Part shown: positions 6,894 through 63,062 of the stretch, one piece after another | Numbering within the stretch: position 1 is the stretch's first letter | Layout of the letters: each line of letters begins with the position of its first letter | Origin: a bacterium UBP16_UBA6123 | GTDB lineage: Bacteria; Muiribacteriota; UBA9980 | DNA: 64,000 nucleotides | Reading direction: 5' to 3' | Assembly (NCBI GenBank): GCA_002423385.1 | Contig: DIVV01000135.1 | Location: forward strand, 8,019-72,018 | Notes under the pieces: generated by a model | Told to the model about the DNA's origin: nothing | The model's database searches: none | The model's input: only the letters and a program-made list of their open reading frames with translations | Translations under genes and position numbers: made by a program

Positions 6894-6916
6894 AATAAGA
6901 TTATCAGGGAGGCTTT

Positions 6917-27390: not shown

Positions 27391-29799
27391 TTACTTTTTC
27401 ATCTTCTTTTTTATTTCAGCCAGAACACGGTTGGGCGTGTATGGCCCTGAAAACATGCGAACTCCCGCGGCGTCGAAAATCGCGTTGCCGATAGCAGGCA
27501 GCGCTCCGTTAATGCCTATTTCTGAAACGCTCTTCGCTCCGAAAGGTCCGCTTTCTTCATAAGTTGGAACGAGTATTGTTTTGACGGCCGGCATATCGAC
27601 GGCGTTAAATATCTTGTAATCATTAAACGATGTATTTAACAGCCTTCCTTTTTTATCGAATATGAATTCTTCGCTCAGAGCGAAACTGATGCCGTTTAAA
27701 ACCGCGCCTTCGCACTGGCCTTCGGCGAATTTCGGGTTTATGGCCGTTCCACAGTCGGTCACGTTAAGGTATTCGAGTGGTTTTACGAACCCGGTTCTGA
27801 TATCGACGGCTACATACACAAAATGCGCTGAAAAAGGCGGCGGCGATTTGTGCGTTATATGCGAAGCCGAAGCGTCGATCTGGAATTGGTTCTTTTCGTA
27901 AAGCGTATAATACGCGATATCTTTAAACGATACCTTCTCTTTTTTAGAAGCGCTATATACGATTCCATTTTTAAACCTCAGGTCGTCTTCCGTAGTTTTC
28001 ATCATTTCGCAGGCGACTTTTGAAATTTTAGCTTTTATTTTTTCCGCTGTCTTGATAACCGCGCCTCCTGAAAGATAAGTAGTCGAAGAAGCGTATGCGC
28101 CGACATCAAATGGCGTCATATCGGTATCCGAGGAATAAACTATTATATCGGCGGGCTGTACGGTGAGAATTTCGGCCGCCATCTGCGCGAATATGGTGTC
28201 GCTTCCGGTGCCGAGGTCTGTCGCGCCTAATGATAAGTTGAACGATCCATCATCGTTTATTTTCATGTAGGCTGCGCCCATGTCTATTTCGGGAATACTC
28301 GAGCCCTGCATGAGGCATACCATGCCCGCGCCGTAATGCCAGTCGCCTTCAACGCGCTTTTTGTTGAATTTATCGTACCAGCCGAATTCTTTAACGCCGA
28401 TATCGATGCATTTTTCGAGGCCGCAGGAACCGATTTTCATTTCGACGCCTTCTTTGCCTTCGCCCATCTTCTGAAATACCGGTGAGCCTTCGCCTTCTTT
28501 GATGTGATGTTTTTTGTAGAATTTGATTATGTCGATACCCATTTCACGGCACATTATATCGACTTGCTGGCCGATAGCGTGGTATGTTTGCGTCGCGCCA
28601 TAGCCGCGATAGGCGCCGCCGACGGGAAGATTGGTGTAAACGGAATCGCCGTAGAAGCGGATATCTTTTACTTTATTAAACAGCGGCAAAACTTTGCTGG
28701 CCGAGTTGCAAAGAACCGTAAGCGCGGCGGAGCCATAGGCGCCCGTGTTCATTATGATATTTACGTCTATTGCGGTAAGGTCTCCATTTTTGTTCATTCC
28801 GGTGCGAAGTTCGATATGTTGCGGATGACGCGTGCGCGCGCTCATAAATTCTTCGTGGCGGCTATATTCGAGCCTGACGGGTTTTTTAGTTTTCATCGTC
28901 AGCGCGGCGCAGATATCTTCGATAAGCATTTCCTGCTTGCCGCCGAAGCCGCCGCCGATGCGCGGCTTGATAACGCGGATGCGCTTTACCGGTATATCGA
29001 GAGCCTGTCCCACTATGCGTCTTGTATGAAACGGCACCTGGGTGCTGGTTATGATATTAAGCCTGTCGTTGGGGTCTAAATGCGTTATGCACACATGCGG
29101 TTCCATCGGGCAATGCTGGGCGTAGTGGGATTCGTAAGTATGTTCGAAAACGCGCTCGGAATTTTTAAGCGCCGCTTCGACGTCGCCTTCGCTCATTTCG
29201 GCGTGCGCGGCGAGATTGGTGTTTTTATCGTAGGCAAGCGGTATTATCATTCGGGCTTCGTCTTCGTCGTGAATGACCGGCGCGCCCTTTGCGCGGGCTT
29301 TAAGCGGGTCTAAAACCGCTTCTAATATTTTATATTCAACTTTAATCAATTCTAACGCTTCTTCGGCTAATTCCAGCGTTTCAGCCGCCACGGCGGCTAC
29401 GCGGTCGCCCACGAAGCGCACTTTTTTATCCAGAGTGAAGCTGTCGTAAGGCGACGGTTCGGGATATCCCTGCCCGGCCGTGGTGTGAATTATGCGCGGC
29501 AGGTCTTTATGCGTGAGAACGGCTTTCACGCCAGGTAATTTTTCAGCTTTAGACGTATCGATGCTTATTATTTCCGCGTGAGCGTGAGGACTCGTTAAAA
29601 TTTTAGCGTAAAGCATTCCGTGAAATTCAAAATCGTCGGTGAACATGGGTTTGCCGGTGACAAGCCCGGGGCCTTCGACTTTTTTAATACTGCTGTTGAC
29701 TATTTTGAAATTATCTTTATGCTCTAAAGGCGCGCCGCTTTCAAATTTATCGGCCGGCGCATTTTTAATTGTTTTTTTATCTTTCATATTATTTATCAC
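27391..29799 (-). CDS. Molybdopterin-binding large subunit of xanthine dehydrogenase / aldehyde oxidase family
   Basis: 802 aa; N-terminal Ald_Xan_dh_C-like region (GKPMFTDDFEFHGMLYAKILTSPHAHAEIISID) and long C-terminal MoCo domain. Confidence 0.8.
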   Translation of the reverse strand: MINNMKDKKTIKNAPADKFESGAPLEHKDNFKIVNSSIKKVEGPGLVTGKPMFTDDFEFHGMLYAKILTSPHAHAEIISIDTSKAEKLPGVKAVLTHKDLPRIIHTTAGQGYPEPSPYDSFTLDKKVRFVGDRVAAVAAETLELAEEALELIKVEYKILEAVLDPLKARAKGAPVIHDEDEARMIIPLAYDKNTNLAAHAEMSEGDVEAALKNSERVFEHTYESHYAQHCPMEPHVCITHLDPNDRLNIITSTQVPFHTRRIVGQALDIPVKRIRVIKPRIGGGFGGKQEMLIEDICAALTMKTKKPVRLEYSRHEEFMSARTRHPQHIELRTGMNKNGDLTAIDVNIIMNTGAYGSAALTVLCNSASKVLPLFNKVKDIRFYGDSVYTNLPVGGAYRGYGATQTYHAIGQQVDIMCREMGIDIIKFYKKHHIKEGEGSPVFQKMGEGKEGVEMKIGSCGLEKCIDIGVKEFGWYDKFNKKRVEGDWHYGAGMVCLMQGSSIPEIDMGAAYMKINDDGSFNLSLGATDLGTGSDTIFAQMAAEILTVQPADIIVYSSDTDMTPFDVGAYASSTTYLSGGAVIKTAEKIKAKISKVACEMMKTTEDDLRFKNGIVYSASKKEKVSFKDIAYYTLYEKNQFQIDASASHITHKSPPPFSAHFVYVAVDIRTGFVKPLEYLNVTDCGTAINPKFAEGQCEGAVLNGISFALSEEFIFDKKGRLLNTSFNDYKIFNAVDMPAVKTILVPTYEESGPFGAKSVSEIGINGALPAIGNAIFDAAGVRMFSGPYTPNRVLAEIKKKMKK

Positions 29800-30265
29800 C
29801 TCTCATCTTTTTCGCGGCGCGCTCGACTGCTTCGAGTTTTTTTACATATCCTGTGCAGCGGCAGAGATTGCCGTCGGTCGCTCTTTTTATTTCATCCATA
29901 TTTGGATCGGGATTCGATTTTAAAAGGGCGTAAGATGAAATTAAAAAACCGGGTGTGCAGTAGCCGCATTGAACGCCGCCTGTTTCGAGTATGGATTCCT
30001 GGAGCGGATGAAGATTATCGCTTTCGCCTAAACCTTCGATGGTGGTTATTTCAAAGCCGTCGGCCGATGCGGCGGGTATCATGCATGAATTCATCGGCCT
30101 GCCGTTTACAAGCACCGTGCAGGCGCCGCAGCTTCCTTCGTAGCAGCCCTTTTTAATGCCTTTATAGCCGGCCGCCCTCAAGGCGTCCACGAGGCGCTCG
30201 TTTATTTTTACTCTTAATATTTTATCTTCGTTATTTATTTTTAATTTGATCTCTATTGTTTTCAT
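29789..30265 (-). CDS. [2Fe-2S]-binding small subunit of xanthine dehydrogenase/CO dehydrogenase family
   Basis: CYEGSCGACTV plant-type ferredoxin motif plus second cluster CGYCTPG...CRCTGY; 158 aa. Confidence 0.8.
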   Translation of the reverse strand: MKTIEIKLKINNEDKILRVKINERLVDALRAAGYKGIKKGCYEGSCGACTVLVNGRPMNSCMIPAASADGFEITTIEGLGESDNLHPLQESILETGGVQCGYCTPGFLISSYALLKSNPDPNMDEIKRATDGNLCRCTGYVKKLEAVERAAKKMRGDK

Positions 30266-30269
30266 AATC

Positions 30270-31133
30270 TTAATTGCCTCCTTTGTTTTCTTTAACGACG
30301 CGTTCTATGAGGCGCTCGAATAACGCGGGCAGTATTTCTTTTTTATATTCGATCGACACCCTTTTATCGTTTGTGAATATCGTTTCTGAAGCGGCATGAC
30401 GGGCGGCTTTTGCGGCGGCGCCTTTATCGTCTGCCGGCGCGCCTTTTAAAAGCGCCGCCGATTCGCTTAATAGCTGTGGCAGGCTTCCAGCGGCGCTTAC
30501 CGCGAAACGGATATCTTCGAATGCGCCGTCTTTTATTTTAGCGATCACTCCGGCGTCTAATATGGCGTAATCAAAATTAGTCTGTGAAAATTTAGTGAAT
30601 TTACCCGTATAACTGGTAAGATCAGGAAATAAAACTTCGGTGACTATTTCGTTTTTAGAAATTGCCAGACTCGGATGTTTTTTGACGGCGTTAATATATG
30701 ATAATTTTCTGATATTGTTTTTAGAGGCAACGCTGAGTTCGGCGCCGCATAAAAGAAGGGCGGCCGGAAGGTCCGACCACGGAAAGGTCTGGATTATATT
30801 ACCGCCTAAAGTTATCATATTTCTAAGAGGGGTGCTTGCGATATAATAGGCGGCCTCATAAATAAGCCCGCCGCAATAGTTTTTTATTTCATTCGATTCG
30901 AGAAGGCTGGCTATTGTTACGGTTGCGCCCGCCCTGACGCCGTTTTCATCTTTTATTATTTTATCCGTCCCGGTATTTTTGATGTCGATGAGAGTTTTCA
31001 CTTCGTTGTTTTTTGCCGCCATAACGGCCGTGCCGCCGGCGATCAACTTCGCGCCTTCGGTGTTTTCATCCGCGAGGCGCAGGGCTTCCTGCAGTGATGA
31101 AGGTTTATAATAGTTTTCTAATTTTCTGAGCAT
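30270..31133 (-). CDS. FAD-binding subunit of xanthine dehydrogenase/CO dehydrogenase family (CoxM/XdhB-like)
   Basis: 287 aa; AGGTAV FAD-binding motif (FAD_binding_5-like); first gene of a three-gene operon with 4-nt spacing. Confidence 0.75.
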   Translation of the reverse strand: MLRKLENYYKPSSLQEALRLADENTEGAKLIAGGTAVMAAKNNEVKTLIDIKNTGTDKIIKDENGVRAGATVTIASLLESNEIKNYCGGLIYEAAYYIASTPLRNMITLGGNIIQTFPWSDLPAALLLCGAELSVASKNNIRKLSYINAVKKHPSLAISKNEIVTEVLFPDLTSYTGKFTKFSQTNFDYAILDAGVIAKIKDGAFEDIRFAVSAAGSLPQLLSESAALLKGAPADDKGAAAKAARHAASETIFTNDKRVSIEYKKEILPALFERLIERVVKENKGGN

Positions 31134-48730: not shown

Positions 48731-50923
48731 TTAATTGTTTTTACAATTGACTATTATACCATATTTGATAAATTTTTCAATAAGCGCCGGAAGGTTTTTT
48801 GAAATTAAAAGAATGTTTTTGTTGATGGTTTCAAATTCTTCGCCGGATTCTTCCGCTCTGGATAAAAGCTGGATATCGGCCGGTTTATTTTTATCGGTAT
48901 AATAAAAATAATCGAGCGCTAAAAAATCGAGCGGATCGTTAAAATAGAATTTTTGAGTATCGAATGTGCCGTCGTTGTTTACTATATGTTTTAAGGCCAT
49001 GCAAACCTTGCGGGCTGGCGGATTTTTAAAGTTGAATACGGTTGTTGCGGCAGCGGAGATATCGCAGCCTGATGGGCAATTTATTATATCGTTATCAAAG
49101 CGGATCAGCGAAAACGTTTTAGACAGTTTTAGCCTGCCGCCGCCGGCGAAATTTTCGGCGCACGCGCGGATAGCTTCATATAAACGGCCGTCACGTTTAA
49201 TTTTTTGAGGTTTTAAAAAATCGGGAAGTGAAAATCTTTTGGATTCGCCCGCGATAAAGTCGTATCGGAGGCAGTCCGATAAAATTTGATAATAGTCTGC
49301 TGCGGATGGTTTTATCGTTTCGCCGTTGAAGCGGTCTATATATAAAAACAGGTTCTGGCGAGATATCGCCGTTTCGGATATATCGTTGCGTTCGAAATAT
49401 TCTATGAGCGCAAAAAAAAGGTCCGACGGTTTTTTAAAATAATAAAACAGCGCGCGCAGCGTGAGATTAAGATGTCCGTGGTTATATAGCAAATCGAGAT
49501 ATCGGCCGAGTTTTTGAAGTTTGAACATTTCAAAAGCGTCGATAGTATTGGTTTTAATAACCGCATAGGGCGGGTTGAGATCGTAAATTAACCCCATTTT
49601 TTCGGCATTTTCACGAAGTTTAGTGCCGCGCAGAAGTTTTAGCTGCCAGAATTGCACGCTGTCGGGAGTTTTAGACAGGAGCTCGTCGAAAGAAGATATG
49701 CAGTTTTGATAATTATCGCCGGGCAGTCCGTACATTAAATCGGCGTGAATATTGATTCGGGTGTCATTAATCAATAAATCGAGGATATCGCCCGCGTTAA
49801 CGGTTTTAGCATTTTCGGGCGCGGTTGAACCGCCGCCGGCTTGTTCGCCGTCAGAGCTGGTTCTGGCAGGGCTTTCCGAGTTAACGCGTCCGACGGCGTC
49901 GAGCGCTTTTTTATTAAACGACTGCACGCCTATTTCGAATTGAAAATATTGCAGCTCGAGGCTTTTTAAATAATCGAGCAATTCGGGCGTGAACTTATAG
50001 GGGCTGATTTCAAATTGAAAAAGGGTTTCAGGCCGCGCGGCTGAAACCGCGTATTTAAAAATTGCGAGGGCGCGCCCGGGATCGTCGTTGAAAGTGCGGT
50101 CTATTACGCGAATTTTATCGATTTTTAAATCGTTTATTATCGTGTCGATATCTTTAAAAACGCGGTTTAATGAAAAATATCTGACTGCCGGCGCGTTTTT
50201 AGGCTTGAGCGAGCTCAGGCAATAATGACAGTGATTGGGGCAGCCGCGTGAGGTTTCAAGATATACGAAGTTTTTGCCGCCGCGCGCCGCCTGCCGGCCG
50301 TCATGCTTTAAAAAGATCGACGGCAGATCGTCTAAATTATTTACTACGGCCGGTTCCGGGCAAAATTCGAAGGCGCCGGAATCGCTTAAATGCGCCATGC
50401 CTTCTATCTGCATAAGACGGCCGCGCTCGGGGGCGGCTTCGCCCGAGCATTGGAAGGAGTCTATTGAAAGTTCTATAAAGCGCGCGAATGAAATTTCGCC
50501 CTCGCCGCTAATCGCGTAGGAAGCGCCGCACATGGCTTCGCTCTCGCCGCGGCAGACGGAAATAACTTCGGGCCCGCCGGCCAGGGTGAGCGCGTGTGGA
50601 AAAGCCCGTCTGATAAACGATATTAATTTACGGATAAAATCGTGGTTCCATATATATATTGAAAAGCAGTAAATATCGGCGTTATTCGAGCAAAGCGCGC
50701 GCGTGGCGTATTCATGGGTGTCGCTCAAGTTGAATTCATAAATTTTAAGCTCGTATCGATCGCACCCGATATTTTTTGAATCGAGATATTTGTAAAGATA
50801 GCCGCTCAAATAATCTAAGGCGGCGGCATTTTGCGTATAACGGGTATTAACGGCGCAAAGCGCGATTTTGAGTTTTTTAGCTGTCGTAGAGTTTTGGGCA
50901 TTTTTGATTTGATCGTCGTTCAT
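48731..50923 (-). CDS. B12-binding-domain radical SAM protein with C-terminal DUF4080-like region
   Basis: N-terminal cobalamin-binding-like domain (IALCAVNTRY...), radical SAM CxxxCxxC (CPNHCHYC), long C-terminal extension typical of the DUF4080 class; 730 aa; has a low-complexity insert (SPARTSSDGEQAGGGSTAPENAK). Confidence 0.7.
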   Translation of the reverse strand: MNDDQIKNAQNSTTAKKLKIALCAVNTRYTQNAAALDYLSGYLYKYLDSKNIGCDRYELKIYEFNLSDTHEYATRALCSNNADIYCFSIYIWNHDFIRKLISFIRRAFPHALTLAGGPEVISVCRGESEAMCGASYAISGEGEISFARFIELSIDSFQCSGEAAPERGRLMQIEGMAHLSDSGAFEFCPEPAVVNNLDDLPSIFLKHDGRQAARGGKNFVYLETSRGCPNHCHYCLSSLKPKNAPAVRYFSLNRVFKDIDTIINDLKIDKIRVIDRTFNDDPGRALAIFKYAVSAARPETLFQFEISPYKFTPELLDYLKSLELQYFQFEIGVQSFNKKALDAVGRVNSESPARTSSDGEQAGGGSTAPENAKTVNAGDILDLLINDTRINIHADLMYGLPGDNYQNCISSFDELLSKTPDSVQFWQLKLLRGTKLRENAEKMGLIYDLNPPYAVIKTNTIDAFEMFKLQKLGRYLDLLYNHGHLNLTLRALFYYFKKPSDLFFALIEYFERNDISETAISRQNLFLYIDRFNGETIKPSAADYYQILSDCLRYDFIAGESKRFSLPDFLKPQKIKRDGRLYEAIRACAENFAGGGRLKLSKTFSLIRFDNDIINCPSGCDISAAATTVFNFKNPPARKVCMALKHIVNNDGTFDTQKFYFNDPLDFLALDYFYYTDKNKPADIQLLSRAEESGEEFETINKNILLISKNLPALIEKFIKYGIIVNCKNN

Positions 50924-51006: not shown

Positions 51007-52956
51007 TTATTTTAAAAACCTGTCGTTTTCTTTTCGGACGGTTATGCCGGTTTTATCGAAAAATTCAAGTATCGCTATGGCGTATTTTCTTGACAGCGTG
51101 GTTTTATCTTTGAAATCGATGACGCTAAAAGACGGCTTTGCCGAAATTATCTCTTTAATAGCCGAAAGATATGATTCCATCTGGCCGGCTGTTATATAAT
51201 AGTTTTCGAATATTCTATAAATCGATTTTTCGTTCTCTAAAAATTTAACTACTTTATTAAAAAGCTCGATCTGGTTTTTAGCGACGACGGCTTTTACCTC
51301 GTCGAGAGTTTTAGGCGTAAATGAAGCGCCGTCGAAAGATTTAAAGATTTTCCGCCTTATAATTTCGGAATCGCCTTCGAGTTTTTTTTCCGCCGCTCCG
51401 CCGCCGGCGGGTAAAGTTATCATTCCGTCGGCGTTTTTAATTTTATTTTCGGCGGCAGCCGAGTCTATGATGTATGAATAAAAAAGAGTTTCGTCTTCGT
51501 CCGGTTTCGCCGAATATAACTTGAAAAGCTCTAATTTTGTGATGCCGGCGTTCAATTTATTCGAATTTAAGTATTGGTTTAATTTATCAATCATTGACGC
51601 TTTAAATGCCTGCATGTTTTTTTCGCCTGTAATCAGCCGGTCTTTGATAAAAAGATATTTATCATCAGGCGCCGCGCGGGAAATAATATCGATTATTTTT
51701 TCTTTAATGGTCATAAAAGCGGCGCAGGCAAGATTTATTTCTATAAAGCCGCGCTTTTTAATTTCATTTGAAAAAAATAATTCGGCTATTTTAGTTTCAT
51801 CTTCCATCGGCGCGTCTTTAAAAATTGAAACGCTTTCCAGTACGGCTTTTTTATTTTTAACAAGCTGGTTATGACAGCTTAATATTATTCCGCCGCCGAT
51901 AGTTTCTTCGTCGGTATGCGTCCTGATTATGAATGGTTTTAAAATTAAAGCGAAATCAGCCGAAGCCAGAATTATCTGGGCCAGATAAATGCTGTCCGCC
52001 TCGAGTTCCGAAGTTTCTAAAAGCCTCAGTTTGGCGGCGTAACAGGCGGAATAAAAATAAAATTTAATATTGGCGCCGCTTTTAATTTTATGTTTGAGGT
52101 TTTTGGACGCGCGGAGTTTAACGGTTAAAACACGGTATGTGCAAGCGATTTCGCTTGAAACTAAAAACGAGCCGCGCGCGATTTCAGCTTCGCGCGTTTT
52201 TGTTATATTAAGCGCGGCGCGCAGGCCGCTGCTCACTTCGCTGAATTTAGCCGAATGTGATTCTATGGAGCGTACCTTGCATTCGCCGCCGGGCATTATT
52301 TTATAAATTCCGTCGGTTTTAAGGCATCCCCGCATGAGCGTGCCGGTTAAAATCTGCCCGAATCCCGCTTTATCAAAGACACGGTCAATCGGATAAAGCG
52401 TTAATTTATCGATTTCGCGCCCTCCGCCGCTGACGCCTTCGGCCGCTAGAGCGGCTATTTCTTTGCTGACGGCGGCGATTAATTCGGCGCTTCCTTTTTT
52501 ATCGGCCGCGGAAAAATTTATAATCTTTGAATTTTGAAATTTTGTGTCTTTTAAAAAATCTTCGATTTCCATTCTGCGGTACTCGATATCGTCTTCGGAA
52601 ACCAGGTCGCATTTATTGAGCACCGCTATTATTTTAGAAATTCCGCAAAAATTTAATATATCGAAGTGTTCGACGGTCTGCGGCATTATTCCTTCACTTG
52701 CCGCTATTACAAGCAGCGCGACGCGCGCGCCGAATATTCCGGCGAGCATGTTATGAACGAAATCTTCGTGGCCCGGAACATCTATTATGGAAACCGGCCC
52801 CGCGCCTTCTATATCGATATGCGCGAAGCCTATATCGATGGTGATTTCGCGCTCTATCTCCTCGCGGTAGCGCGCGGTGGTAATGCCCGTGAGCGCCTTG
52901 ATTACGCTTGATTTGCCGTGGTCAACGTGACCGGCCATTCCTATTACGAATCCCAT
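51007..52956 (-). CDS. selB: Selenocysteine-specific translation elongation factor
   Basis: GTPase N-terminus GMAGHVDHGKSS..., DVPGHEDF, NKCDL; 649 aa with long C-terminal winged-helix region as in bacterial SelB. Confidence 0.8.
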   Translation of the reverse strand: MGFVIGMAGHVDHGKSSVIKALTGITTARYREEIEREITIDIGFAHIDIEGAGPVSIIDVPGHEDFVHNMLAGIFGARVALLVIAASEGIMPQTVEHFDILNFCGISKIIAVLNKCDLVSEDDIEYRRMEIEDFLKDTKFQNSKIINFSAADKKGSAELIAAVSKEIAALAAEGVSGGGREIDKLTLYPIDRVFDKAGFGQILTGTLMRGCLKTDGIYKIMPGGECKVRSIESHSAKFSEVSSGLRAALNITKTREAEIARGSFLVSSEIACTYRVLTVKLRASKNLKHKIKSGANIKFYFYSACYAAKLRLLETSELEADSIYLAQIILASADFALILKPFIIRTHTDEETIGGGIILSCHNQLVKNKKAVLESVSIFKDAPMEDETKIAELFFSNEIKKRGFIEINLACAAFMTIKEKIIDIISRAAPDDKYLFIKDRLITGEKNMQAFKASMIDKLNQYLNSNKLNAGITKLELFKLYSAKPDEDETLFYSYIIDSAAAENKIKNADGMITLPAGGGAAEKKLEGDSEIIRRKIFKSFDGASFTPKTLDEVKAVVAKNQIELFNKVVKFLENEKSIYRIFENYYITAGQMESYLSAIKEIISAKPSFSVIDFKDKTTLSRKYAIAILEFFDKTGITVRKENDRFLK

Positions 52957-55066: not shown

Positions 55067-55969
55067 TTAATTTAATATTATAATGGCGTCGGTTTCTTCT
55101 TCGTTGACCTTAATTTCCCAGTAACCGCCGCGTTCGTAAAAGACGAAAAGCCCGTTTATCGATAGTTTCTGCCCTTCTTTATACCGCGTGGAATCAACGC
55201 CGAAAACTATTACAGAAGCCGGTTTCGAGCCGGGAATGGTTTCAACGGCGGTATCGGCCACTTCGACTATGAGCTTGCCGCGTTTTGATACAACTATGGC
55301 TTCTTTTATCTTAATTTTTTTATTTTTGAAGTTATCGGGTTTTTCAAGAAGCGATTTGATATCCGCGTCGATGGTTTTATTTTCATTCGACTTATCTACC
55401 ACTTTTAAAAGTTCGGCGGTGCCGAGGCTCAGCGTGCGGTATCCTTTTCCGGCAAAAAGCGTCGCCGAGGCGTCGATGATATCGCCGCGGGCGGGCAGCA
55501 GCCCTTTTTCTTTAAGCTCTCTGGCGACTTCGCCTTCGGCTTTTAGTTTGATGCGGCCTTCGTAGTCGTCGCCGCTGCCTTTAGATGCGTCTTCGAGCTC
55601 TAATTGTATCGTCGAGCGCTTCTGGTATTTGTCTTTGAATTCGCTTATATAGCGCACTTTTGCAAGTACGCGCACGTGCGAAAAATTCATGGTTTCGTTA
55701 AGATCGCCTATGGCTATATAATTCGGGCTCAAACTTACCGATATCGCGAAATAAACGAGGGCGGCTATAAAAAGTATTATAGTCGAAAGATTCATACTTC
55801 TTACGCTTATCCGCTCGCGCGGCGGGGTAAGCGCGCAGCAGTAAGCGCACCTTTTTTTAAATTCAGGGTTCGGCCGTCCGCAGCTCGGGCATTTGTCCGC
55901 GATATTAAGCGTTTCCGGCGCGCCGTCCATATTCATGGTATCTATTTCAAAATTATTTTGATCGCTCAA
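55067..55969 (-). CDS. Membrane protein: N-terminal Cys4 zinc ribbon, single TM, extracytoplasmic region with two OB-fold-like modules
   Basis: CPSCGRPNPEFKKRCAYCC; TM IILFIAALVYFAISV; paralog of the adjacent gene (ARELKEKGLLPARGDIIDASATL vs TRELVEAKKLPAFGDKIKMTASF). Confidence 0.4.
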   Translation of the reverse strand: MSDQNNFEIDTMNMDGAPETLNIADKCPSCGRPNPEFKKRCAYCCALTPPRERISVRSMNLSTIILFIAALVYFAISVSLSPNYIAIGDLNETMNFSHVRVLAKVRYISEFKDKYQKRSTIQLELEDASKGSGDDYEGRIKLKAEGEVARELKEKGLLPARGDIIDASATLFAGKGYRTLSLGTAELLKVVDKSNENKTIDADIKSLLEKPDNFKNKKIKIKEAIVVSKRGKLIVEVADTAVETIPGSKPASVIVFGVDSTRYKEGQKLSINGLFVFYERGGYWEIKVNEEETDAIIILN

Positions 55970-55997: not shown

Positions 55998-56897
55998 TTA
56001 CATCATATTGTCTTTTTTGACGATATCTTCGCTCGCTTTTATGATACTTTCGGCCGAGGGGAGCACAATTACGAAATATTTATCGTCTTTTTTGCCGCGC
56101 AGTTCGAGCGCTCCGCTTAAAGTGATAAAATCGCCTTCGCGCGGCGCGTCTTTCCACTCATCGGCGTTTTCTTTGACGAGGCGTCCCGCCTGCAAAGCGG
56201 AAAACGGCATTACCGCGGTCAGCCGGGTTTCATCGGTCGCCTCGCCGGCTTCCAGGTCGATTTCAAGCTCGTATCTGGAGCTGTTGACGGCCGCAACGCG
56301 CCCCGACACCTTTACGATATCGCCGCGTTTGAATTTATCGCCGGGGTTTTCATTGACGGTTTTAATCGGTGAAGCGGTTTCGGGCGTATGGCGCTCTATT
56401 TTAATGCCTTTTTCCGAGCCGAGTATTAAGAAACCGCCCTTGCCTTTATATTGAAAACTTGCCGTCATTTTGATTTTATCGCCGAAGGCGGGGAGTTTTT
56501 TGGCTTCGACGAGTTCGCGCGTGGCGTCGTCATAGCAGCGAACGAGCATAAGGGCGGTGCCGTCGTCGATTTCGAATTCGACCGAACCTCCGGCGTTTTC
56601 GCCTTTATCGGCGGCCGCATAGTAGCGCAGTGGCGCGTTAACGACGGCGTTAGTGGTTACCTGGGCGAAGTTGCTACGTTTGGTGAGCGTGTCGAGCTTA
56701 ACCTCGGGATTGCCGTAATGAACGCCGATATAATGAAGTACAAAGAGGCCAAGGACTGATATTATGGGGGTTAAATATTTAATCAGGCGTACCGAAAGCC
56801 TCTTGGGATTAAAACTACGGCAGAAAGGACACAATTCCAGCGCGCCGACAAAACGGCCGCAGGTTTTACAGTGCGTTTCTTCGTAATTTTGACTCAT
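55998..56897 (-). CDS. Paralogous zinc-ribbon / TM / 2xOB-fold-like membrane protein
   Basis: CKTCGRFVGALELCPFC; TM PIISVLGLFVLHYIGV; C-terminal region homologous to 55067-55969. Confidence 0.4.
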   Translation of the reverse strand: MSQNYEETHCKTCGRFVGALELCPFCRSFNPKRLSVRLIKYLTPIISVLGLFVLHYIGVHYGNPEVKLDTLTKRSNFAQVTTNAVVNAPLRYYAAADKGENAGGSVEFEIDDGTALMLVRCYDDATRELVEAKKLPAFGDKIKMTASFQYKGKGGFLILGSEKGIKIERHTPETASPIKTVNENPGDKFKRGDIVKVSGRVAAVNSSRYELEIDLEAGEATDETRLTAVMPFSALQAGRLVKENADEWKDAPREGDFITLSGALELRGKKDDKYFVIVLPSAESIIKASEDIVKKDNMM

Positions 56898-57002: not shown

Positions 57003-58838
57003 TTATCTTTTAAGCCTTATTTTCGGGCGCAGGTCTTGATTCGGGGCGTTGCTGATATCGTTAGCCTGTTCCATAAGCGTTTTATGCGGTCCGCCTTCTA
57101 TATCGCGGAATTTGACGAATCCTTCGTTCATGAGTTTTTTCAGAAGCGTTTCGATGCGGCTGAATCGATAAGCGTTGGTGCTTTCTTTAAAGCCGAGTTC
57201 GAAAAACCTGTTTTCTTCTATGAAGAAGAAGTACTGAACGCATGGTGATTTGCCTTCGGGCGCGTCGCGGTTTTTATCCAGGTGCAGGCTCAGTATATCT
57301 ATTTTAGGCAGATGTATAGGGTCTTTATTCATAGATTCAGCCAGATGGGCCATCTGGTTGTATAATTCTTTCGAATCGCCCCAGTCTTTGCTTAATATCA
57401 TCGCGCAGTCCAGATCGTATTCGATGTCGCCGGAGCCTTTGCAATGGTACAAACCCGGCCTTTCATCGTCATTTTCGGTTATTTCGATCATACAGCCTTC
57501 TTTGTTTAAAGACGATATGATTATAAGCGGGCAGTTAAGTTCTATGGTAAGGCGTTTCAGGTCGGTGGATATCTCTTCCACTCTGAATTTTTCGGAGTCG
57601 TAATTTCTGGCGATCGGCATTTTCTGGATATAATCGCAGACTATTAAAACCTCGTCGGTTTGATGGTCCTGCATGGCGTTATAGGCGTGGGCCTTGATGC
57701 GGTCAACCGTGTCTTCTTTGGTGCCTTCGATTACATAAAGGCAGTCCATGTATTGTTCCATTTTAACCCAGCCCTGGGCGAATTTCATATCGTTTTCGGG
57801 CACGCCCTTGATGCGGCGTCGTTGAAGAGTGTCGGGGTTGATCCTGGTTTCTTTAGCTAAAAGCCTGTAGGTGAGGTTCTTTTTAGTCTGTTCCCAGGTG
57901 AAGAACAGGACGGGCTTTTTGCTGTTAGAGGCCACCAGCGTGGCTAATTCGAGAGTAAAATTGGTCTTGCCGCGCCTCGGCGCGCCCGCTATGCCGTATA
58001 AAAATCCGCGCCTGAGGCCTGAAATGGCGCTGCTTAAATCGCTGAAAGGTTTCAGCGAATATCCAAGGCAGTCTTTTTCGCCTTCGAGCTCGCGCTGATT
58101 GATATCCTGAGCTATTTCAATCATCTGCGCCTTGATGAGCTGTATTTCTTTTTTGGACTGAGCCCTCTGGATATCGCGAATTTCTTTGGTGATTTCGCTC
58201 GAAAAATCGATGAAGCTCATTTTGGCTTCCTTATCGACGCCCTTTAAAAAATTATTGATGCGATGAGTGATTTCGCGAAGCTGATGCTTTGAACTTTCTT
58301 CTCGCAGTATCTTAAGATAAGCCATCACCTGCGAAAGTTGAGGCACGCGCGATTTAGTGACCAGGTCGAAAAAGCGTTTCATATTATCGTCGAAAAGTTT
58401 GTTCTGTTCGAGCTTATTTCTTATTATTATCGCGTCAACTACTTTTTCGCGGCCGACTCCGGCGTAAACGTCCTGTATCATTCTGAAAATATGCTTCGAA
58501 TAAATATTATGAAGCATTTTTTCATTGAAGCCTTCGTTTAATACCTTGCCGAGCATGTACTGATCGTTTATAAAGCCGTTTAGTATGGTTATTTCTATTT
58601 CTTCGTTTAAATCGGAAGCCGGCGGCATTTCATAAGAATGTGATGACGGCGCGGCCGCTGTCACGCCGGAGGATTCTACTCTGCTGGCTGCTTGAGCGTC
58701 GCCGCCCGTGGCGCTTTTATCGCGTACGGCGCGAAGCGGCTCCGTACGGGCGCTCTGGAATATAGAAAACGCGCATTTGCCGCAAATTCCGGAAAAGTTG
58801 CTTTCGGGTATGCCTGCACCGCATTTTTTGCATTTCAT
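57003..58838 (-). CDS. DnaB-family helicase with N-terminal Cys4 zinc ribbon and ~90-aa C-terminal extension
   Basis: CKKCGAGIPESNFSGICGKC; DnaB-N-like segment (FNEKMLHNIYSKHIFRMIQDVY...); RecA-like core with Walker A GAPRRGKT, Walker B VLIVCDYIQKM, and KGSGDIEYDLD. Confidence 0.55.
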   Translation of the reverse strand: MKCKKCGAGIPESNFSGICGKCAFSIFQSARTEPLRAVRDKSATGGDAQAASRVESSGVTAAAPSSHSYEMPPASDLNEEIEITILNGFINDQYMLGKVLNEGFNEKMLHNIYSKHIFRMIQDVYAGVGREKVVDAIIIRNKLEQNKLFDDNMKRFFDLVTKSRVPQLSQVMAYLKILREESSKHQLREITHRINNFLKGVDKEAKMSFIDFSSEITKEIRDIQRAQSKKEIQLIKAQMIEIAQDINQRELEGEKDCLGYSLKPFSDLSSAISGLRRGFLYGIAGAPRRGKTNFTLELATLVASNSKKPVLFFTWEQTKKNLTYRLLAKETRINPDTLQRRRIKGVPENDMKFAQGWVKMEQYMDCLYVIEGTKEDTVDRIKAHAYNAMQDHQTDEVLIVCDYIQKMPIARNYDSEKFRVEEISTDLKRLTIELNCPLIIISSLNKEGCMIEITENDDERPGLYHCKGSGDIEYDLDCAMILSKDWGDSKELYNQMAHLAESMNKDPIHLPKIDILSLHLDKNRDAPEGKSPCVQYFFFIEENRFFELGFKESTNAYRFSRIETLLKKLMNEGFVKFRDIEGGPHKTLMEQANDISNAPNQDLRPKIRLKR

Positions 58839-58890: not shown

Positions 58891-59952
58891 TCAGTTTAAA
58901 CAGTTGTGGCAGGCAGCGAATCGGCCTGCCGTGACTTCTTTCAGCGCCGGGCGTTCTTTTAAGCATATATCGGTTTTAAAATCGCAGCGCGGGCTGAAGT
59001 AACAGTAATTACCGGACGATTCGACTTCGTTTATATCCGCTACGGAAAGGTCCGATACTTCTTTATGCGTTAATTCGTTGTTTTCAAATTTCTTCAAAAA
59101 ATTTTCGCGTGATTTTTCGTCGAATGTGAGTATTGAATCTTTTAATAATTTAGAGTACGGATGATACTGTTTATTAAAAAAAAGGCCGCCAGGGGCTAAT
59201 TCCATAACCCGTCCCATGTAGAGCACCATCACCCTGTCGCTTATGTGATTTATTACCGCCAGGTTATGTGAAATAAAAATATAAGTCAGGCCGAATTCGG
59301 CCTGCAGGTCGCGCATTAAATTCAACACCTGCGCCTGCACCGATACGTCGAGCGCTGAGACCGGCTCGTCGGCGATAATTATTTCAGGATTGAGAGCCAG
59401 CGCCCTCGCTATGCCTATTCTTTGCTTTTGCCCGCCCGAGAACTCGTGTGGATAGCGCTGCGCCATCTCGGCTGAAATGCCGACTTTTTCAAGAAGGCCG
59501 TAAACGAATTCGCGCCTTTCGTTTTTGCGCGGGTAGATATCATGAACTATGAGCGGCTCTTCTACTATCTGATTGGCCCGCCATTTCGGGTCTAAACTGA
59601 GATTGGGGTCCTGAAAGATCATTTGAAACTTTCGCCGGTATTTAAAAAGCTCGGCCCGCGATTTTATCTGAAAAAAATCTATGCCGCCGGGGCCGTATTC
59701 GGACCCGTGATATATCAGGCTGCCTCCGGCGGGCTCTATAAGGCGCATTATGGTCTTGCCGAGCGTCGATTTACCGCAGCCCGATTCGCCGACGATGCCG
59801 AGCGTTTCGCCGCGCGCTATTTTAAAATTGACGCCGTCAACGGCTTTTTTGTAGCCGTAAAGTTTTTGGAACAGTCCGCGGCGCATGGGAAAATAAGTTT
59901 TAATGCCGCTGGCCTCGAGTATCGCATTTTTATCGGGCGCCATATAAGCCAT
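58891..59952 (-). CDS. ABC transporter ATP-binding protein, oligopeptide/dipeptide (OppF/DppF) type, no cognate permease/SBP adjacent
   Basis: Walker [10 protein letters not shown], signature [15 protein letters not shown], Walker B IIIADEP, C-terminal oligo_HPY-like tail. Confidence 0.75.
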
Positions 59953-60004: not shown

Positions 60005-60556
60005 TTAAATTATTTCTTTAAATATTTCGGCCTTCGGCGAAGGTATTACGACGGCGTTAACTAAAAGCCCTTTTTCGCCTATTATTTTAACGGCGGCATC
60101 TACCGCCTCGCGGACGTTTGAAACCGTTCCGGTCATCGTGCAGTAAGCCTTTCCGCCAAGCGCCATAGCGAGCCTTATTTCGATAAGCTCTACGTTAGCC
60201 GCTTTGACGGCCGCGTCGGCGCCTTCTATAAGAGAGGCCACCGAAAAGGCTTCTACGATTCCCAGCGCGTCGGGTTTGCAAAAATCGCAGGCGCCCTTAA
60301 TGGCTTTAAAAACCGATTCGTGAACGTTAGGGATCACGAAGGAATCTATCAAAGTATTTGCGGCGGCTTCGATTCCCGCTTCTACCGAAGATTTTACCGC
60401 GGCGACCTCGCCGCCCACTAAAGCTACGAATTTGCCCGAACATACGGTTCTGAGTAATAACAATTCGGTGTTCGCAGCTTTTATCATCGTGTCGCCGATT
60501 AAAAAACCGGAGGCGACAGAAGATGATTCTATTATTCCAATAGCTCTGCTAGTCAT
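60005..60556 (-). CDS. pduT: Tandem-BMC-domain microcompartment shell protein, PduT-like (Fe-S pore Cys conserved)
   Basis: 183 aa, two BMC repeats (AIGIIESSSVASG...KAANTEL and ALGIVEAFSVASL...KAANVEL); near-collinear with Salmonella PduT including RTVCSGKF (PduT TICPGKF, 4Fe-4S ligand Cys). Confidence 0.75.
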   Translation of the reverse strand: MTSRAIGIIESSSVASGFLIGDTMIKAANTELLLLRTVCSGKFVALVGGEVAAVKSSVEAGIEAAANTLIDSFVIPNVHESVFKAIKGACDFCKPDALGIVEAFSVASLIEGADAAVKAANVELIEIRLAMALGGKAYCTMTGTVSNVREAVDAAVKIIGEKGLLVNAVVIPSPKAEIFKEII

Positions 60557-60587
60557 GATTCTTTTCCTTTCCCGGATTAAATGATCA

Positions 60588-60640
60588 GTTGTTAGTCGTT
60601 AGGGGGCCGTTAGTCGTTAGTTGTTAGTTATTAGAGGTTA
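60588..60640. repeat. GTTAG-based direct repeats (GTTAGTCGTTAG x2 separated by GGGGCC, plus further GTTAG copies) in the PduS-like/PduT spacer
   Basis: Seen directly: 60591-60602 and 60609-60620 are identical 12-mers; additional gttag at 60623-60627 and ttattag following. Confidence 0.8.
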
Positions 60641-60690
60641 CTAAATTAAATATAGTTGGCAGTTTCACGCGTTGTGTTATTTTTAAAGCG

Positions 60691-62025
60691 TTAAACGGCT
60701 TTTATTATTATGGCGTCTTTTCTTATCGAAGAAACCGTTCCGTCTATCGAGGCGTGAATGTCGGCGCCAAGTTTATTTTCGGCCATAGTGGCTATCAACT
60801 GCCCTTTTTTAACGGTTTCACCTATTGACACTAAAGGTTCCGCGGGCTGGCCTATATGCTGTTTTAATAATATAGTTACCGATTCGGGTTTGATTTCGAT
60901 TAAATTCAGTTCGGCATGATCGTTATAGCCGCCAAGCCCGATTTTATTTATTAATTTTTTAGTCGGCACTTTTCGATATTGCGCCATAGGATGAGCTTTT
61001 AAATTATCTTTTTTCGCTTCGAATTTTAATCCGCCCGCTATGGCGTCACGCTTGGCCGAGGCGCACATAAAGTTGGGCAGCAAATCTTCGGGGCACGAAT
61101 AAAAACCGCATAAACCGCACTCTACGCATCCCGACGCCCATTTAGTTATCAGCGGATCGTTTTGCGAGCTCATTAAAAGAGTGCGCATTACGCGGTGCGG
61201 CTCTATCTGGTGGCCGACGAGGTAGCGCGGGCAGAACTCGGTGCAGTAGGAGCATTGATCGCAGGCCGATTTGCCGACTTTTTTGAACTGCGCAGGTTTT
61301 TGGGTTTTGCGCTGTATGAATTTATGTCCGGCTGAAAGCACTATATATCCCGAAGAGGTTTTAGTGATCGGAGTTTCGGCGTCATAAACTATCTCGCTCA
61401 TCATGGCGCCGCCCGACATATAAACCGGATCGGAAACAAGTGTTTTTCCCGCCAGGCCGATGATATCTGAAATTTTAACGCCTATAGGCACTTTCAGGGT
61501 TATCGGATGTTCGACTTCGCCGGCGATAGTTAAAAATTTGTCGGTAACTGGCGCCGAAGTTTTATAGGCGGCAAAAATATTATAAAAAGTTTCAACATTT
61601 GAAACTATAACGCCAACATTGAGCGGAATTCCCCCTGGCGGCACGATACGGCCGAGTACGTCGCTCACCATCACCACTTCGTCGCCCGCCGGATAATAAT
61701 CGCCGATAATATGTATTTTAATTCTACCGTCGAGCTTATTAGCGGCGATTATCTCATTCATTTTTTCGATAGCTTCTTTATTTTTGCTTTTAAGCGCTAT
61801 TATACCGCATTTTGCAGATGAATTAGCCGTGGTTAAAAGCAGGCCGCCGATTATCTCTTCGGCGAAGTTCTTCATCATTTCTTTATCTTTACATAAAAGA
61901 GGTTCGCACTCGGCGCCGTTGACGATAATGGTATCGACTTTAGCGTTCATTTTAACGTGAGACGGAAATCCGGCGCCGCCAGCGCCTACTATTCCGGCTT
62001 TTTTGATCGTATCGATTAAATTCAT
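60691..62025 (-). CDS. RnfC/complex-I-51K-family flavo-Fe-S oxidoreductase, PduS-like
   Basis: GAGGAGFP nucleotide/FMN motif, two 4Fe-4S motifs (CDQCSYCTEFCP, CVECGLCGFYSCP), 444 aa, immediately upstream of pduT as in pdu operons. Confidence 0.6.
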   Translation of the reverse strand: MNLIDTIKKAGIVGAGGAGFPSHVKMNAKVDTIIVNGAECEPLLCKDKEMMKNFAEEIIGGLLLTTANSSAKCGIIALKSKNKEAIEKMNEIIAANKLDGRIKIHIIGDYYPAGDEVVMVSDVLGRIVPPGGIPLNVGVIVSNVETFYNIFAAYKTSAPVTDKFLTIAGEVEHPITLKVPIGVKISDIIGLAGKTLVSDPVYMSGGAMMSEIVYDAETPITKTSSGYIVLSAGHKFIQRKTQKPAQFKKVGKSACDQCSYCTEFCPRYLVGHQIEPHRVMRTLLMSSQNDPLITKWASGCVECGLCGFYSCPEDLLPNFMCASAKRDAIAGGLKFEAKKDNLKAHPMAQYRKVPTKKLINKIGLGGYNDHAELNLIEIKPESVTILLKQHIGQPAEPLVSIGETVKKGQLIATMAENKLGADIHASIDGTVSSIRKDAIIIKAV

Positions 62026-62048: not shown

Positions 62049-63062
62049 TTATTGCATACTGCTAAACATTTTAACGCTTGAAAGCCGCTCTATGTCTTGA
62101 AGCGGCAGATTGATGAATTTTTTGACTATTTCAGGATTGAACCGCGCGCCCGAGTCGTTTTTTAATATATCGACGGCTTCTATCGCAGGAAGGGCGGCCC
62201 GGTTAAGCAGCCCGTGCGTCATTATGTCGTAACTATCTGCTATGGCCACTATTTGAGCGCCAAGCGGTATTTTATCGCCGGCGATACCGTCGGGAAACCC
62301 TGCGCCGTTATATTTTTCGTGATGATGTAAAATAATCGAAAGAGAGCGCGTCATGGCTTTAAGCGGCGCGCAGATTTCGTAGCCGAGCATCGGGTGTTTT
62401 TTATAAATTTCGTATTCGTGTTCGGAGAGTGCATCGGTTTTTTCTAATATTTCGGTCGGAACGCCTATTTTGCCTATATCGTGAAGGTAGGCGCCGAACT
62501 CTATTTCGGTGATCTCGTCCCGCGTTAAATTCATCATTCGCGCGCATTCGGTCGCATACATTCCCACGCGCTTCGAGTGCCCTTTTCTGAAAGTGTCTTT
62601 AAAATCAGTGGCGAAAGCGAACGACATTATCACATTGCGCGAGCTTTCAAGCTGACTTCCGAGGTGCTTGAATTTTAAAAGCGTTTTAACTCTGGTTAAA
62701 AGCTCTCTTTTATTGATAGGCTTGGTTAAAAATTCGTCCGCGCCCAGTTCGATGCCCTTAAGTTTATCGTCGAGCTGGTTTAAAGCTGAAATAATTATTA
62801 TAGGAGTTCTTTTCGTGTTTTCGTTTTCCTTGACTTCACGGCATATTTCAAAGCCGTTTATTCCGGGCATTAAAACGTCGAGCAGTATCAAATCGGGGCG
62901 CGATTCATTTATTAACGAAATCGCGCGCGTACCGTCTTCAAGGGTTTCGACGAAATATCCTTCTTTTTCGAGGATCATTTTAAGTATTTTAAGATTGTTT
63001 TCGTTATCGTCGACGGCGAGTATTTTATATTTTTGCTCGCTGAATAAATTGGTTGAATTCAT
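62049..63062 (-). CDS. Response regulator with HD-GYP phosphodiesterase output domain
   Basis: REC domain (ILAVDDN...LILLDVLMPGINGF...K); HD motif YLHDIGKIG and HHHEKYNGAGFP (HD-GYP signature). Confidence 0.75.
   Translation of the reverse strand: MNSTNLFSEQKYKILAVDDNENNLKILKMILEKEGYFVETLEDGTRAISLINESRPDLILLDVLMPGINGFEICREVKENENTKRTPIIIISALNQLDDKLKGIELGADEFLTKPINKRELLTRVKTLLKFKHLGSQLESSRNVIMSFAFATDFKDTFRKGHSKRVGMYATECARMMNLTRDEITEIEFGAYLHDIGKIGVPTEILEKTDALSEHEYEIYKKHPMLGYEICAPLKAMTRSLSIILHHHEKYNGAGFPDGIAGDKIPLGAQIVAIADSYDIMTHGLLNRAALPAIEAVDILKNDSGARFNPEIVKKFINLPLQDIERLSSVKMFSSMQ

Follow-up and report, generated by a model that had tools for sequence, protein, structure and literature searches.

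An MNdh/BMC-T^SE (PduS/PduT-like) gene pair located apart from other shell genes in a relative of Candidatus Wallbacteria

Introduction

The closest described system is the two-gene module named MNdh/BMC-T^SE by Sutter et al. (PNAS 2024, PMC11626177). Its published role is the regeneration of NAD+ inside a bacterial microcompartment (BMC), with electrons led out via a cluster in the pore of the shell protein. Both the NADH dehydrogenase activity and the electron path were reported for a homologue from the GRM1 compartment of Clostridium botulinum. The reductase, MNdh, was described as a circularly permuted protein of four domains, and in the 2024 survey it was confined to BMC types with an aldehyde dehydrogenase (PMC11626177). 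The two genes of the module are adjacent in 97% of the published loci, and the pore motif C-P-(G/S)-K was called universal in the same study. As for its genomic placement, the pair is a satellite in 18 of 20 occurrences with PVM BMCs and in 5 of 7 with ACI BMCs (PMC11626177). Of 57 FRAG1 'fragmented' loci, 24 contain a PduS/T pair; fragmented BMCs, split among as many as six loci, form a class already described. Earlier publications cover the module with its mechanism and satellite habit, and an orthologue from a related Wallbacteria genome has already been catalogued.

Here I analyzed a pair of this kind in a 64-kb stretch of DNA (hereafter the window), whose source organism is a Candidatus Wallbacteria relative. 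The pair is likely a satellite module whose compartment is encoded at another place in the same Candidatus Wallbacteria genome. It resembles the published module in its two genes and their order, in the permuted four-domain reductase, in the tandem-BMC trimer and its pore Cys, and in the satellite placement. In contrast to the published C-P-(G/S)-K, however, the clade studied here has C-S-G-K throughout. In addition, the published biochemistry was done on the C. botulinum GRM1 homologue, which lies outside the present clade.

Results and Discussion

The tandem-BMC-domain shell protein

The shell protein gene (60005..60556, minus strand) encodes a PduT-type BMC-T^SE of 183 residues. On the basis of PF00936, the PduT structures, and the BMC catalog, it was assigned to the tandem-BMC-domain proteins forming pseudohexameric trimers and to the clade 'Ts_dusk'. 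The initial annotation had made its reading depend on a double match to PF00936, and the Pfam scan indeed matched this family in two stretches of the protein (149 bits, E = 3.7e-44). The two domains are tandem and non-permuted, as expected of a BMC-T^S protein (about 180-190 aa). The protein had also been described as near-collinear with Salmonella PduT, including the Cys of RTVCSGKF. This was borne out by gapless matches to the PduT structures 3n79, 3pac, and 3nwg (E = 1e-45 to 1e-47). Residues 3-182 are aligned with residues 2-181 of the 3n79 chain (E = 1.5e-45), while the match to 3pac has 46% identity (E = 6e-47), and the pore Cys38 of PduT is aligned with Cys39 of the protein.

The pore motif C39-S-G-K42 (translation CSGK; 60431..60442, minus strand) includes this Cys residue, which is the predicted [4Fe-4S] ligand on the trimer axis. 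Across 192 distinct sequences, C39, G41, and K42 are each conserved to at least 98%, and C-S-G-K is present in all 89 family copies of BMC-T. Since the whole clade has C-S-G-K, the motif called 'universal', C-P-(G/S)-K, is drawn too narrowly, and a motif-based screen would miss the dusk clade.

Each BMC domain has a tile-edge motif on the minus strand: D22-x-x-x-K26 in domain 1 (translation DTMIK; 60479..60493) and D114-x-x-x-K118 in domain 2 (translation DAAVK; 60203..60217). These Asp and Lys residues are each at least 98% conserved in the 192 sequences. The role of D-x-x-x-K in hexamer-hexamer tiling is carried over from structural work on BMC-H/PduA.

The permuted reductase

The partner gene (60691..62025, minus strand) encodes a PduS-like metabolosome NADH dehydrogenase, MNdh, of 444 residues with predicted FMN/NADH-binding and two predicted [4Fe-4S] clusters. 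Pfam detected Complex1_51K (PF01512) at residues 7-151 (155 bits) and Fer4_17 (PF13534) at residues 254-315, while SLBB (PF10531) scored below the Pfam cutoff (21.6 bits vs 27). The RnfC_N-type barrel-sandwich domain (PF13375) lies at residues 380-438 (60712..60888, minus strand). The domain order is PF01512-PF10531-PF13534-PF13375, in which RnfC_N has moved to the C-terminus, a circular permutation with respect to RnfC.

The nucleotide (FMN/NADH) binding motif GAGGAGFP (61963..61986, minus strand) was recognized from the translation and from family conservation; GxGGAGFP is 100% conserved in 71 distinct MNdh sequences. The first 4Fe-4S motif CDQCSYCTEFCP (61228..61263, minus strand) contains Cys255/258/261/265, and the second, CVECGLCGFYSCP (61090..61128, minus strand), contains Cys300/303/306/311. 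Every one of the 71 sequences keeps all eight cluster Cys residues, so each of them is 100% conserved. The Pfam domains and the translation agree with the initial annotation, which had seen upstream of the shell protein gene a flavo-Fe-S protein of the RnfC/51K family with GAGGAGFP and two 4Fe-4S motifs.

Could the reductase instead be the RnfC of a membrane Rnf complex, or an electron-transfer protein of proline reductase similar to PrdC, with the BMC-T gene as a mere neighbour? Its closest solved relatives are RnfC chains (7zc6_C, 9eri_C, and 8ahx_C; E = 1.6e-49), with which the FMN/NADH-binding, SLBB, two-cluster ferredoxin, and barrel-sandwich domains are homologous. The protein just misses the rnfC subfamily model of NCBIfam (TIGR01945; 242.7 bits vs the cutoff of 245.95), and it also gives 215.6 bits with the PrdC model, which is, however, far under the cutoff of 490 bits. 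The barrel-sandwich domain is C-terminal here but N-terminal in RnfC, and the 7zc6_C chain was matched in two swapped segments (query 382-435 to RnfC 32-84, and query 3-312 to RnfC 123-415). Neither rnfA/B/D/E/G nor prd genes are present in the window, and no Rnf/Nqr family domain was found in any scanned window ORF; the reductase partners a shell protein instead of membrane Rnf proteins. Moreover, in 76 of 84 informative loci, the gene directly upstream of BMC-T, in the same orientation, is MNdh. This tight linkage crosses phyla, and the linked loci span Wallbacteria, Ignavibacteria, Acidobacteriota, Bacteroidota, Armatimonadetes, and others. Four related loci have a BMC-T without an MNdh within 10 kb. 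Because the domain is permuted and the pairing is conserved, the RnfC or PrdC assignment is effectively refuted and hardly deserves any credence.

By analogy with the C. botulinum homologue, the window pair would have NADH dehydrogenase activity and a similar electron path. MNdh would sit against the face of the BMC-T^SE trimer that points to the lumen, and NADH from an encapsulated aldehyde dehydrogenase would be oxidized at its FMN site. Electrons may then pass through the two [4Fe-4S] clusters of MNdh to a third one, which the three Cys39 residues of the trimer would hold at its pore, and from there they would exit to a cytoplasmic acceptor. In this way, NAD+ would be restored within the shell, and no alcohol by-product would be made.

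Surroundings of the pair in the source contig

In 57 of the window ORFs with a length of 80 aa or more, the Pfam scan found no second PF00936 and no PF03319, nor any PF00171, PF06130, PF01791, PF02502, or PF00596. These 57 ORFs are the non-overlapping likely genes; the remaining listed ORFs are shorter and overlap them. BMC-H and BMC-P HMMs run against every window ORF of 50 aa or more revealed no further shell gene, though the BMC-P HMM was a rough one, and for the window the Pfam scans carry more weight. In longer contigs carrying the identical gene, the 10 kb past the right window end contain tsaE, an unknown gene, rpoN, pdxJ, and PAS-cyclases, with no BMC locus; a full BMC locus just downstream was the other outcome that would have spoken against the initial annotation. 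The 8 kb preceding the window were likewise free of BMC genes. In summary, about 79 kb of the 95-kb source contig was read, and neither a further shell gene nor an aldehyde dehydrogenase or a signature enzyme was found there, as the initial annotation had stated for the vicinity of the pair.

These surroundings bear on a strict PduS reading, in which the protein is a cobalamin reductase: inactivated B12 would be recycled for a microcompartment enzyme that depends on it, and PduT would be the shell partner. The pair shares with Salmonella enterica/Citrobacter freundii PduS-PduT the homology and the pduS-then-pduT order, the equivalent of Cys38, GxGGxGFP, and two 4Fe-4S motifs, and its BMC-T is gapless with PduT, with 46% identity to the C. 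freundii protein. The window also contains a B12-binding radical-SAM gene (48731-50923). However, the pair lies outside a pdu operon, with no B12-dependent enzyme nearby: the window has no diol dehydratase, ethanolamine ammonia-lyase, or other pdu/eut genes, and none of the PDU locus genes (pduCDE diol dehydratase, BMC-H, BMC-P, and the pduP aldehyde dehydrogenase) was found in the window or in the flanking contig. A Pro residue beside the pore Cys of PduT is replaced by Ser, and the 183-aa protein falls far below the cutoff of the eut_PduT equivalog model (NCBIfam TIGR02526; 125.9 bits vs 250.3). In addition, the clade is attached mainly to B12-free PVM, FRAG, and SPU-like BMCs, and Sutter et al. 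argued that there is little structural room for a cobalamin-like cofactor and showed NADH dehydrogenase activity (PMC11626177). Cobalamin reduction is thus a very improbable function of the pair. As for the names PduS and PduT in the initial annotation, they hold in the sense of homologues but not of equivalogs.

Relatives in reference genomes and in the BMC catalog

The initial annotation had implied that the solitary placement is odd. It is rather an ordinary one, because the module is normally encoded away from other shell genes, as in the PVM, ACI, and FRAG1 cases mentioned above. In my survey of 88 related loci, 80 of which are from reference genomes, not one has another shell gene within 10 kb of the pair. 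The clade appears to be obligately dispersed in the reference genomes.

The Wallbacteria GWC2_49_35 orthologue A0A1F7WXA0 shares a 90% UniRef cluster with the window BMC-T. In the 2021 BMC catalog (PMC8217296), A0A1F7WXA0 is entered as a satellite BMC-T, 'SPUx (sat)', of the clade Ts_dusk. The catalogued relatives have a DNA identity of only 76-78%. The consolidated loci of the catalogued Wallbacteria relatives are tagged 'SPUx ... (omitted)', which means an incomplete or unresolved set, and the hosts listed for SPU2 and SPU7 BMCs include Wallbacteria. Other dusk-clade members of the catalog are satellites of PVM, FRAG1, and 'fragmented' BMCs, including one from the cultured Opitutus terrae DSM 11246, while one member sits in a PDU1D main locus (PMC8217296). 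In a related metagenome-assembled genome, ADurb.Bin243, the BMC-T orthologue is BWY32_03280, and a 97-aa BMC-P is encoded at a separate locus tag, BWY32_02970. With FRAG and PVM/ACI BMCs, the present case shares a PduS/T pair alone among unrelated neighbours and would share the scattering of shell and accessory genes over several loci; it differs from FRAG1 and PVM in that the catalog relatives of this organism are labelled SPUx, an incomplete SPU-like set.

A shell-independent redox module would also fit some of these data, namely a BMC-T trimer and its reductase working with no microcompartment closed around them. The Fe-S trimer might, for instance, be free or form sheets and take up electrons from the NADH-oxidizing partner. 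The roughly 79 kb around the pair and the 10-kb surroundings of all the related loci are free of other BMC genes, and the Wallbacteria catalog entries, 'SPUx (sat) (omitted)', are incomplete sets. Furthermore, the cross-phylum conservation of BMC-T is unusually high, with a median identity of 61% in the 192 sequences vs 44% for the MNdh partner. On the other hand, both D-x-x-x-K motifs are near-invariant, which would be needless if there were no tiling against BMC-H hexamers. The genomes of all catalogued clade members have other BMC components, including the complete genome of O. terrae with its PVM BMC, and a relative's genome has the BMC-P gene described above. The restriction of MNdh to aldehyde-dehydrogenase-containing BMC types (PMC11626177) and the known class of BMCs fragmented into as many as six loci also speak against it. 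Since the tile-edge residues are near-invariant and the genomes of catalogued members have shell genes elsewhere, a function outside a microcompartment is disfavoured, and I regard it as unlikely. It is a quite doubtful speculation that the dusk-clade pair might act shell-free as a module from NADH to an Fe-S trimer, in which C-S-G-K could adjust the cluster to suit another acceptor. If a shell-free reading were true, a BMC shell protein would be a free-living electron carrier.

The initial annotation had offered two alternatives, a satellite conduit for electrons across the shell and a shell-free function. The former agrees with the published model (PMC11626177) and with the catalogued orthologue, whereas the latter lost ground for the reasons given above. 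For the satellite module, I infer a main locus lying outside the DNA observed here; the shell encoded elsewhere in the genome is probably SPU-like or fragmented. The pair marks the present member of the Wallbacteria, from a methanogenic consortium, as likely microcompartment-bearing. My literature search for Wallbacteria microcompartments gave a single, incidental paper.

Neighbouring genes and the intergenic spacer

The flanking genes are an OppF/DppF-type ABC ATPase gene on one side and the genes for a REC + HD-GYP response regulator and TsaE on the other, and domain scans confirmed these assignments of the initial annotation. The regulator gene (62049..63062, minus strand; PF00072 and PF13487) lies 23 bp upstream of MNdh. 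A sigma-70-like site (11 of 12 positions) was found at 63124-63096 on the minus strand, just upstream of the regulator gene, and none of the gaps that separate the genes for the regulator, MNdh, BMC-T, and the ATPase contains a minus-strand terminator-like site. The regulator gene is possibly co-transcribed with the pair. In strain L002, which is 88% identical, the regulator gene has shrunk to a 53-aa remnant. The regulator and the ATPase were considered as members of the module and dropped, as neighbour clustering shows that only the pair genes recur across phyla. The synteny of the OppF-like ATPase, a DnaB-like helicase, the HD-GYP regulator, and tsaE is found in Wallbacteria only; therefore, the regulator and the ATPase are not parts of the module.

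The MNdh and BMC-T ORFs are on the same strand (minus), with MNdh upstream, and are separated by a gap of 134 bp, compared with a family median of 12.5 bp. This spacer (60557..60690, minus strand) contains five CTAAC heptad repeats and a GGAAAGGAAAAG ribosome-binding region. An Rfam scan of the whole 64-kb window found no RNA element. The CTAAC repeats are limited to the closest relatives, L002 and L009, and are absent from L010, L012, and L014. The repeat spacer is lineage-specific and stands outside the conserved module. A minus-strand terminator-like site at 61865-61844 lies within the MNdh coding sequence.

Domain architecture of the pair

At the positions given in the initial annotation, two co-directional ORFs lie on the minus strand: MNdh (metabolosome NADH dehydrogenase), a flavo-Fe-S protein of 444 residues (60691-62025), and BMC-T^SE, a trimer-forming shell protein of 183 residues with tandem BMC domains (60005-60556). 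It had been left open whether the latter would hit PF00936 twice. Two stretches matched (149 bits, E = 3.7e-44 in Pfam). The proposed near-collinearity with PduT, including the cysteine, is also real. Residues 3-182 align without gaps with residues 2-181 of the PduT structure 3n79 (E = 1.5e-45), and the alignment with 3pac is likewise gapless (E = 6e-47, 46% identity). Cys39 in RTVCSGKF falls on the pore Cys38 of PduT, and the pore motif C-S-G-K is encoded at 60431-60442 on the minus strand.

In MNdh, Pfam detected a Nuo51-type FMN/NADH domain (residues 7-151), a weakly matching SLBB domain, a two-cluster ferredoxin domain (residues 254-315), and a C-terminal RnfC_N barrel-sandwich domain (residues 380-438). 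The motifs GAGGAGFP, CDQCSYCTEFCP, and CVECGLCGFYSCP were found in the translation. The earlier assignment to an RnfC/51K-family protein fitting PduS thus agrees with the domains, the glycine-rich motif, the two 4Fe-4S motifs, and the permuted RnfC_N. PduS-type proteins are told apart from RnfC by a circular permutation, which MNdh shows: it aligns with the RnfC structure 7zc6_C in two swapped pieces (382-435 on RnfC 32-84, and 3-312 on RnfC 123-415). The NCBIfam rnfC subfamily cutoff was missed only narrowly (242.7 vs 245.95 bits). Nevertheless, there is hardly any chance that MNdh is RnfC or PrdC, an identity excluded by the permutation, the absence of partner genes from the window, and the conserved pairing with BMC-T. 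BMC-T^SE fell below the NCBIfam PduT equivalog cutoff (125.9 vs 250.3 bits). Both proteins are homologues and not equivalogs of the Salmonella proteins.

The pair is solitary

The initial annotation saw no other microcompartment genes nearby. Among 57 non-overlapping likely genes (ORFs of at least 80 aa) in the window, Pfam revealed no second BMC-domain gene, no BMC-P (PF03319), and no aldehyde dehydrogenase, PduL, DeoC/RpiB-type SPU enzyme, class II aldolase, or Rnf subunit. No further BMC genes emerged when every window ORF of at least 50 aa was scanned with HMMs. A 95.5-kb ENA contig and JGI 'TOLCLC' contigs match the window at 100% identity and were used to see past its ends. Beyond the right end lie tsaE, an unknown gene, rpoN, pdxJ, and PAS-cyclases, and no full BMC locus, a possibility that had been raised. 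Beyond the left end are Fe-S/ParA-type and other unrelated genes. Therefore, from the window scans and the flank look-ups, about 79 kb of contiguous genome holds no other microcompartment gene. On both checks that the initial annotation had set for itself, the double PF00936 hit and the sequence next to the window, the result upholds the observation.

The flanking genes are those first described, namely an OppF/DppF-type ABC ATPase, a REC + HD-GYP response regulator, and TsaE. A strong sigma-70-like site (11/12 positions and an extended TG) lies just 5′ of the regulator gene at 63124-63096 on the minus strand, as a consensus match only. By consensus matching, too, the intergenic stretches from the regulator through MNdh and BMC-T to the ATPase have no minus-strand terminator-like hairpin; the sole minus-strand match in this region (61865-61844) is inside the MNdh coding sequence. 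In a strain with 88% identity, only 53 aa remain of the regulator (62049-63062 in the window; 8323-8484 in locus L002) while the pair is intact, so the regulator is dispensable. The spacer between MNdh and BMC-T (60557-60690, minus strand) is 134 bp long vs a family median of 12.5 bp, and contains five CTAAC repeats with a 7-nt spacing. CTAAC-like repeats are confined to the closest relatives, L002 and L009. They are absent in ADurb.Bin243, GWC2_49_35, and L014, in which the two genes almost touch or are separated by an unrelated spacer.

The ATPase (58891-59952, minus strand), directly downstream of BMC-T, is an orphan: neither a permease nor a binding-protein gene is found close by. Its position is kept in all Wallbacteria-lineage loci (L009-L015) and not in other phyla. 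Two Chitinophagaceae and two Acidobacteriota loci (L024, L025, L035, and L040) have a generic ABC ATPase of about 300 aa at this place, which may be a coincidence; it scores only about 75 bits against the OppF-like protein of the window.

Distribution and conservation

Is this common? Sutter et al. (PNAS 2024, PMC11626177) took a fresh look at the PduS/PduT-like pair and gave it the names MNdh and BMC-T^SE. MNdh is present in 2,172 of more than 7,000 BMC loci, is adjoined by BMC-T^SE in 97% of the MNdh-bearing ones, and is confined to BMC types with aldehyde dehydrogenase (PMC11626177). Its phylogeny does not follow BMC type, and it is frequently found in satellite loci (18/20 occurrences for PVM, 5/7 for ACI; PMC11626177). 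In the 2021 catalog (PMC8217296), 'fragmented' BMCs have components spread over up to six locations, and 24/57 FRAG1 loci carry the PduS/T pair. The arrangement is thus already known, and the orthologue group of the window protein is already catalogued.

I scanned species-representative genomes and found 80 loci, the nearest in Candidatus Wallbacteria MAGs. L009, ADurb.Bin243, and GWC2_49_35 share 95%, 93%, and 92% protein identity and 90%, 78%, and 76% DNA identity with the window, and on these values are relatives belonging to other species. By exact-sequence look-up, the window BMC-T clusters at 90% with the GWC2_49_35 protein (UniRef A0A1F7WXA0 / OGM07472.1) and BWY32_03280 of ADurb.Bin243. 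A0A1F7WXA0 (A2008_13280) is entered in the catalog's BMC-T^S tree as 'bmcType=SPUx (sat) (omitted), 183aa, Ts_dusk'. ADurb.Bin243 appears in the BMC-P tree with a 97-aa BMC-P under a separate locus tag, BWY32_02970; therefore, one or more vertex-protein genes lie elsewhere in a related genome. Other members of this 'dusk' clade are satellites of PVM BMCs (including that of the cultured Opitutus terrae DSM 11246), of FRAG1, and of 'fragmented' sets (Lindowbacteria, Latescibacteria), and one lies within a PDU1D main locus. SPU2 and SPU7 BMCs count Wallbacteria among their listed hosts.

The window and 88 fetched loci each have exactly one BMC-domain ORF and no BMC-P within 10 kb. Of 84 informative loci, 76 have MNdh immediately upstream of BMC-T in the same orientation (median gap 12.5 bp), and in four more it lies 0.5-2.1 kb upstream. 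The other four (L039, L055, L056, and L070; one Bacteroidetes, one Chromatiales, two Ectothiorhodospiraceae) have a 183-aa C-S-G-K BMC-T, but MNdh is missing from the 10 kb to each side of it. Neighbour clustering revealed no further gene conserved across phyla; synteny of the ATPase, DnaB-like helicase, HD-GYP regulator, and tsaE is limited to Wallbacteria.

The 71 distinct MNdh sequences compared (median identity 44%) keep GxGGAGFP and the eight cluster cysteines without exception. Conservation reaches at least 98% for the BMC-T pore residues Cys39, Gly41, and Lys42, and also for D22/K26 and D114/K118, its two D-x-x-x-K tile-edge motifs, across 192 distinct sequences with a median identity of 61% to the window protein. 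Every one of the 89 copies examined has C-S-G-K as its pore motif, whereas C-P-(G/S)-K is given as universal for BMC-T^SE (PMC11626177). This Pro-to-Ser variant extends across the whole clade and is no anomaly of the window. A screen by the published pattern would overlook all of it.

Proposed function

The initial annotation offered two readings, a satellite locus of a BMC encoded elsewhere or a trimer and reductase working outside any microcompartment. Shell-independent function is unlikely: catalogued clade members have shell genes elsewhere in their genomes, and the tile-edge motifs are conserved, as would be expected, by analogy with established BMC-H/PduA structural work, of a protein still packing against hexamers in a shell facet. 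The satellite reading is probably the right one. A strict PduS role as cobalamin reductase is very improbable, since no B12-dependent BMC enzyme is found in the window and the clade is mostly tied to BMC types without B12 use.

Complex formation and NADH oxidation were shown for the Clostridium botulinum homologue, with a proposed path from NADH via FMN, two [4Fe-4S] clusters, and the trimer-pore [4Fe-4S] cluster to the outside of the shell (PMC11626177). For the window pair, whose architecture, ligands, linkage, and placement were observed, NADH oxidation and the electron path are taken over from that homologue. I infer a shell encoded elsewhere in this genome and a cytoplasmic acceptor. The BMC-T^SE trimer would carry MNdh docked on its lumen face, and NADH from an encapsulated aldehyde dehydrogenase would give electrons to MNdh. 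They would pass through FMN and the two MNdh clusters to a pore cluster that three Cys39 residues would ligate, and leave to the acceptor. The private NAD+ pool may thereby be restored without diverting substrate to alcohol.

Other genes in the window

The protein at 57003-58838 (minus strand) is a DnaB-like helicase that carries a zinc-ribbon in its N-terminal part. It is followed by two proteins of about 300 aa (55998-56897 and 55067-55969, minus strand). Each of these has a hydrophobic segment and, N-terminally, a zinc-ribbon of the form CxxC...CxxC, and the first shows a weak OB-fold match. SelB is encoded at 51007-52956, which indicates that the organism uses selenoproteins. A xanthine-dehydrogenase-type molybdoenzyme set with MoCo-binding, 2Fe-2S, and FAD subunits (27391-31133, minus strand) adjoins a cytosine/purine permease (25643-27160). 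Two tandem DUF4213 + DUF364 ('putative heavy-metal chelation') paralogues (6168-7783, plus strand) sit among ZnuA/ABC-3 metal-uptake, radical-SAM, and ARMT1-like phosphatase genes.
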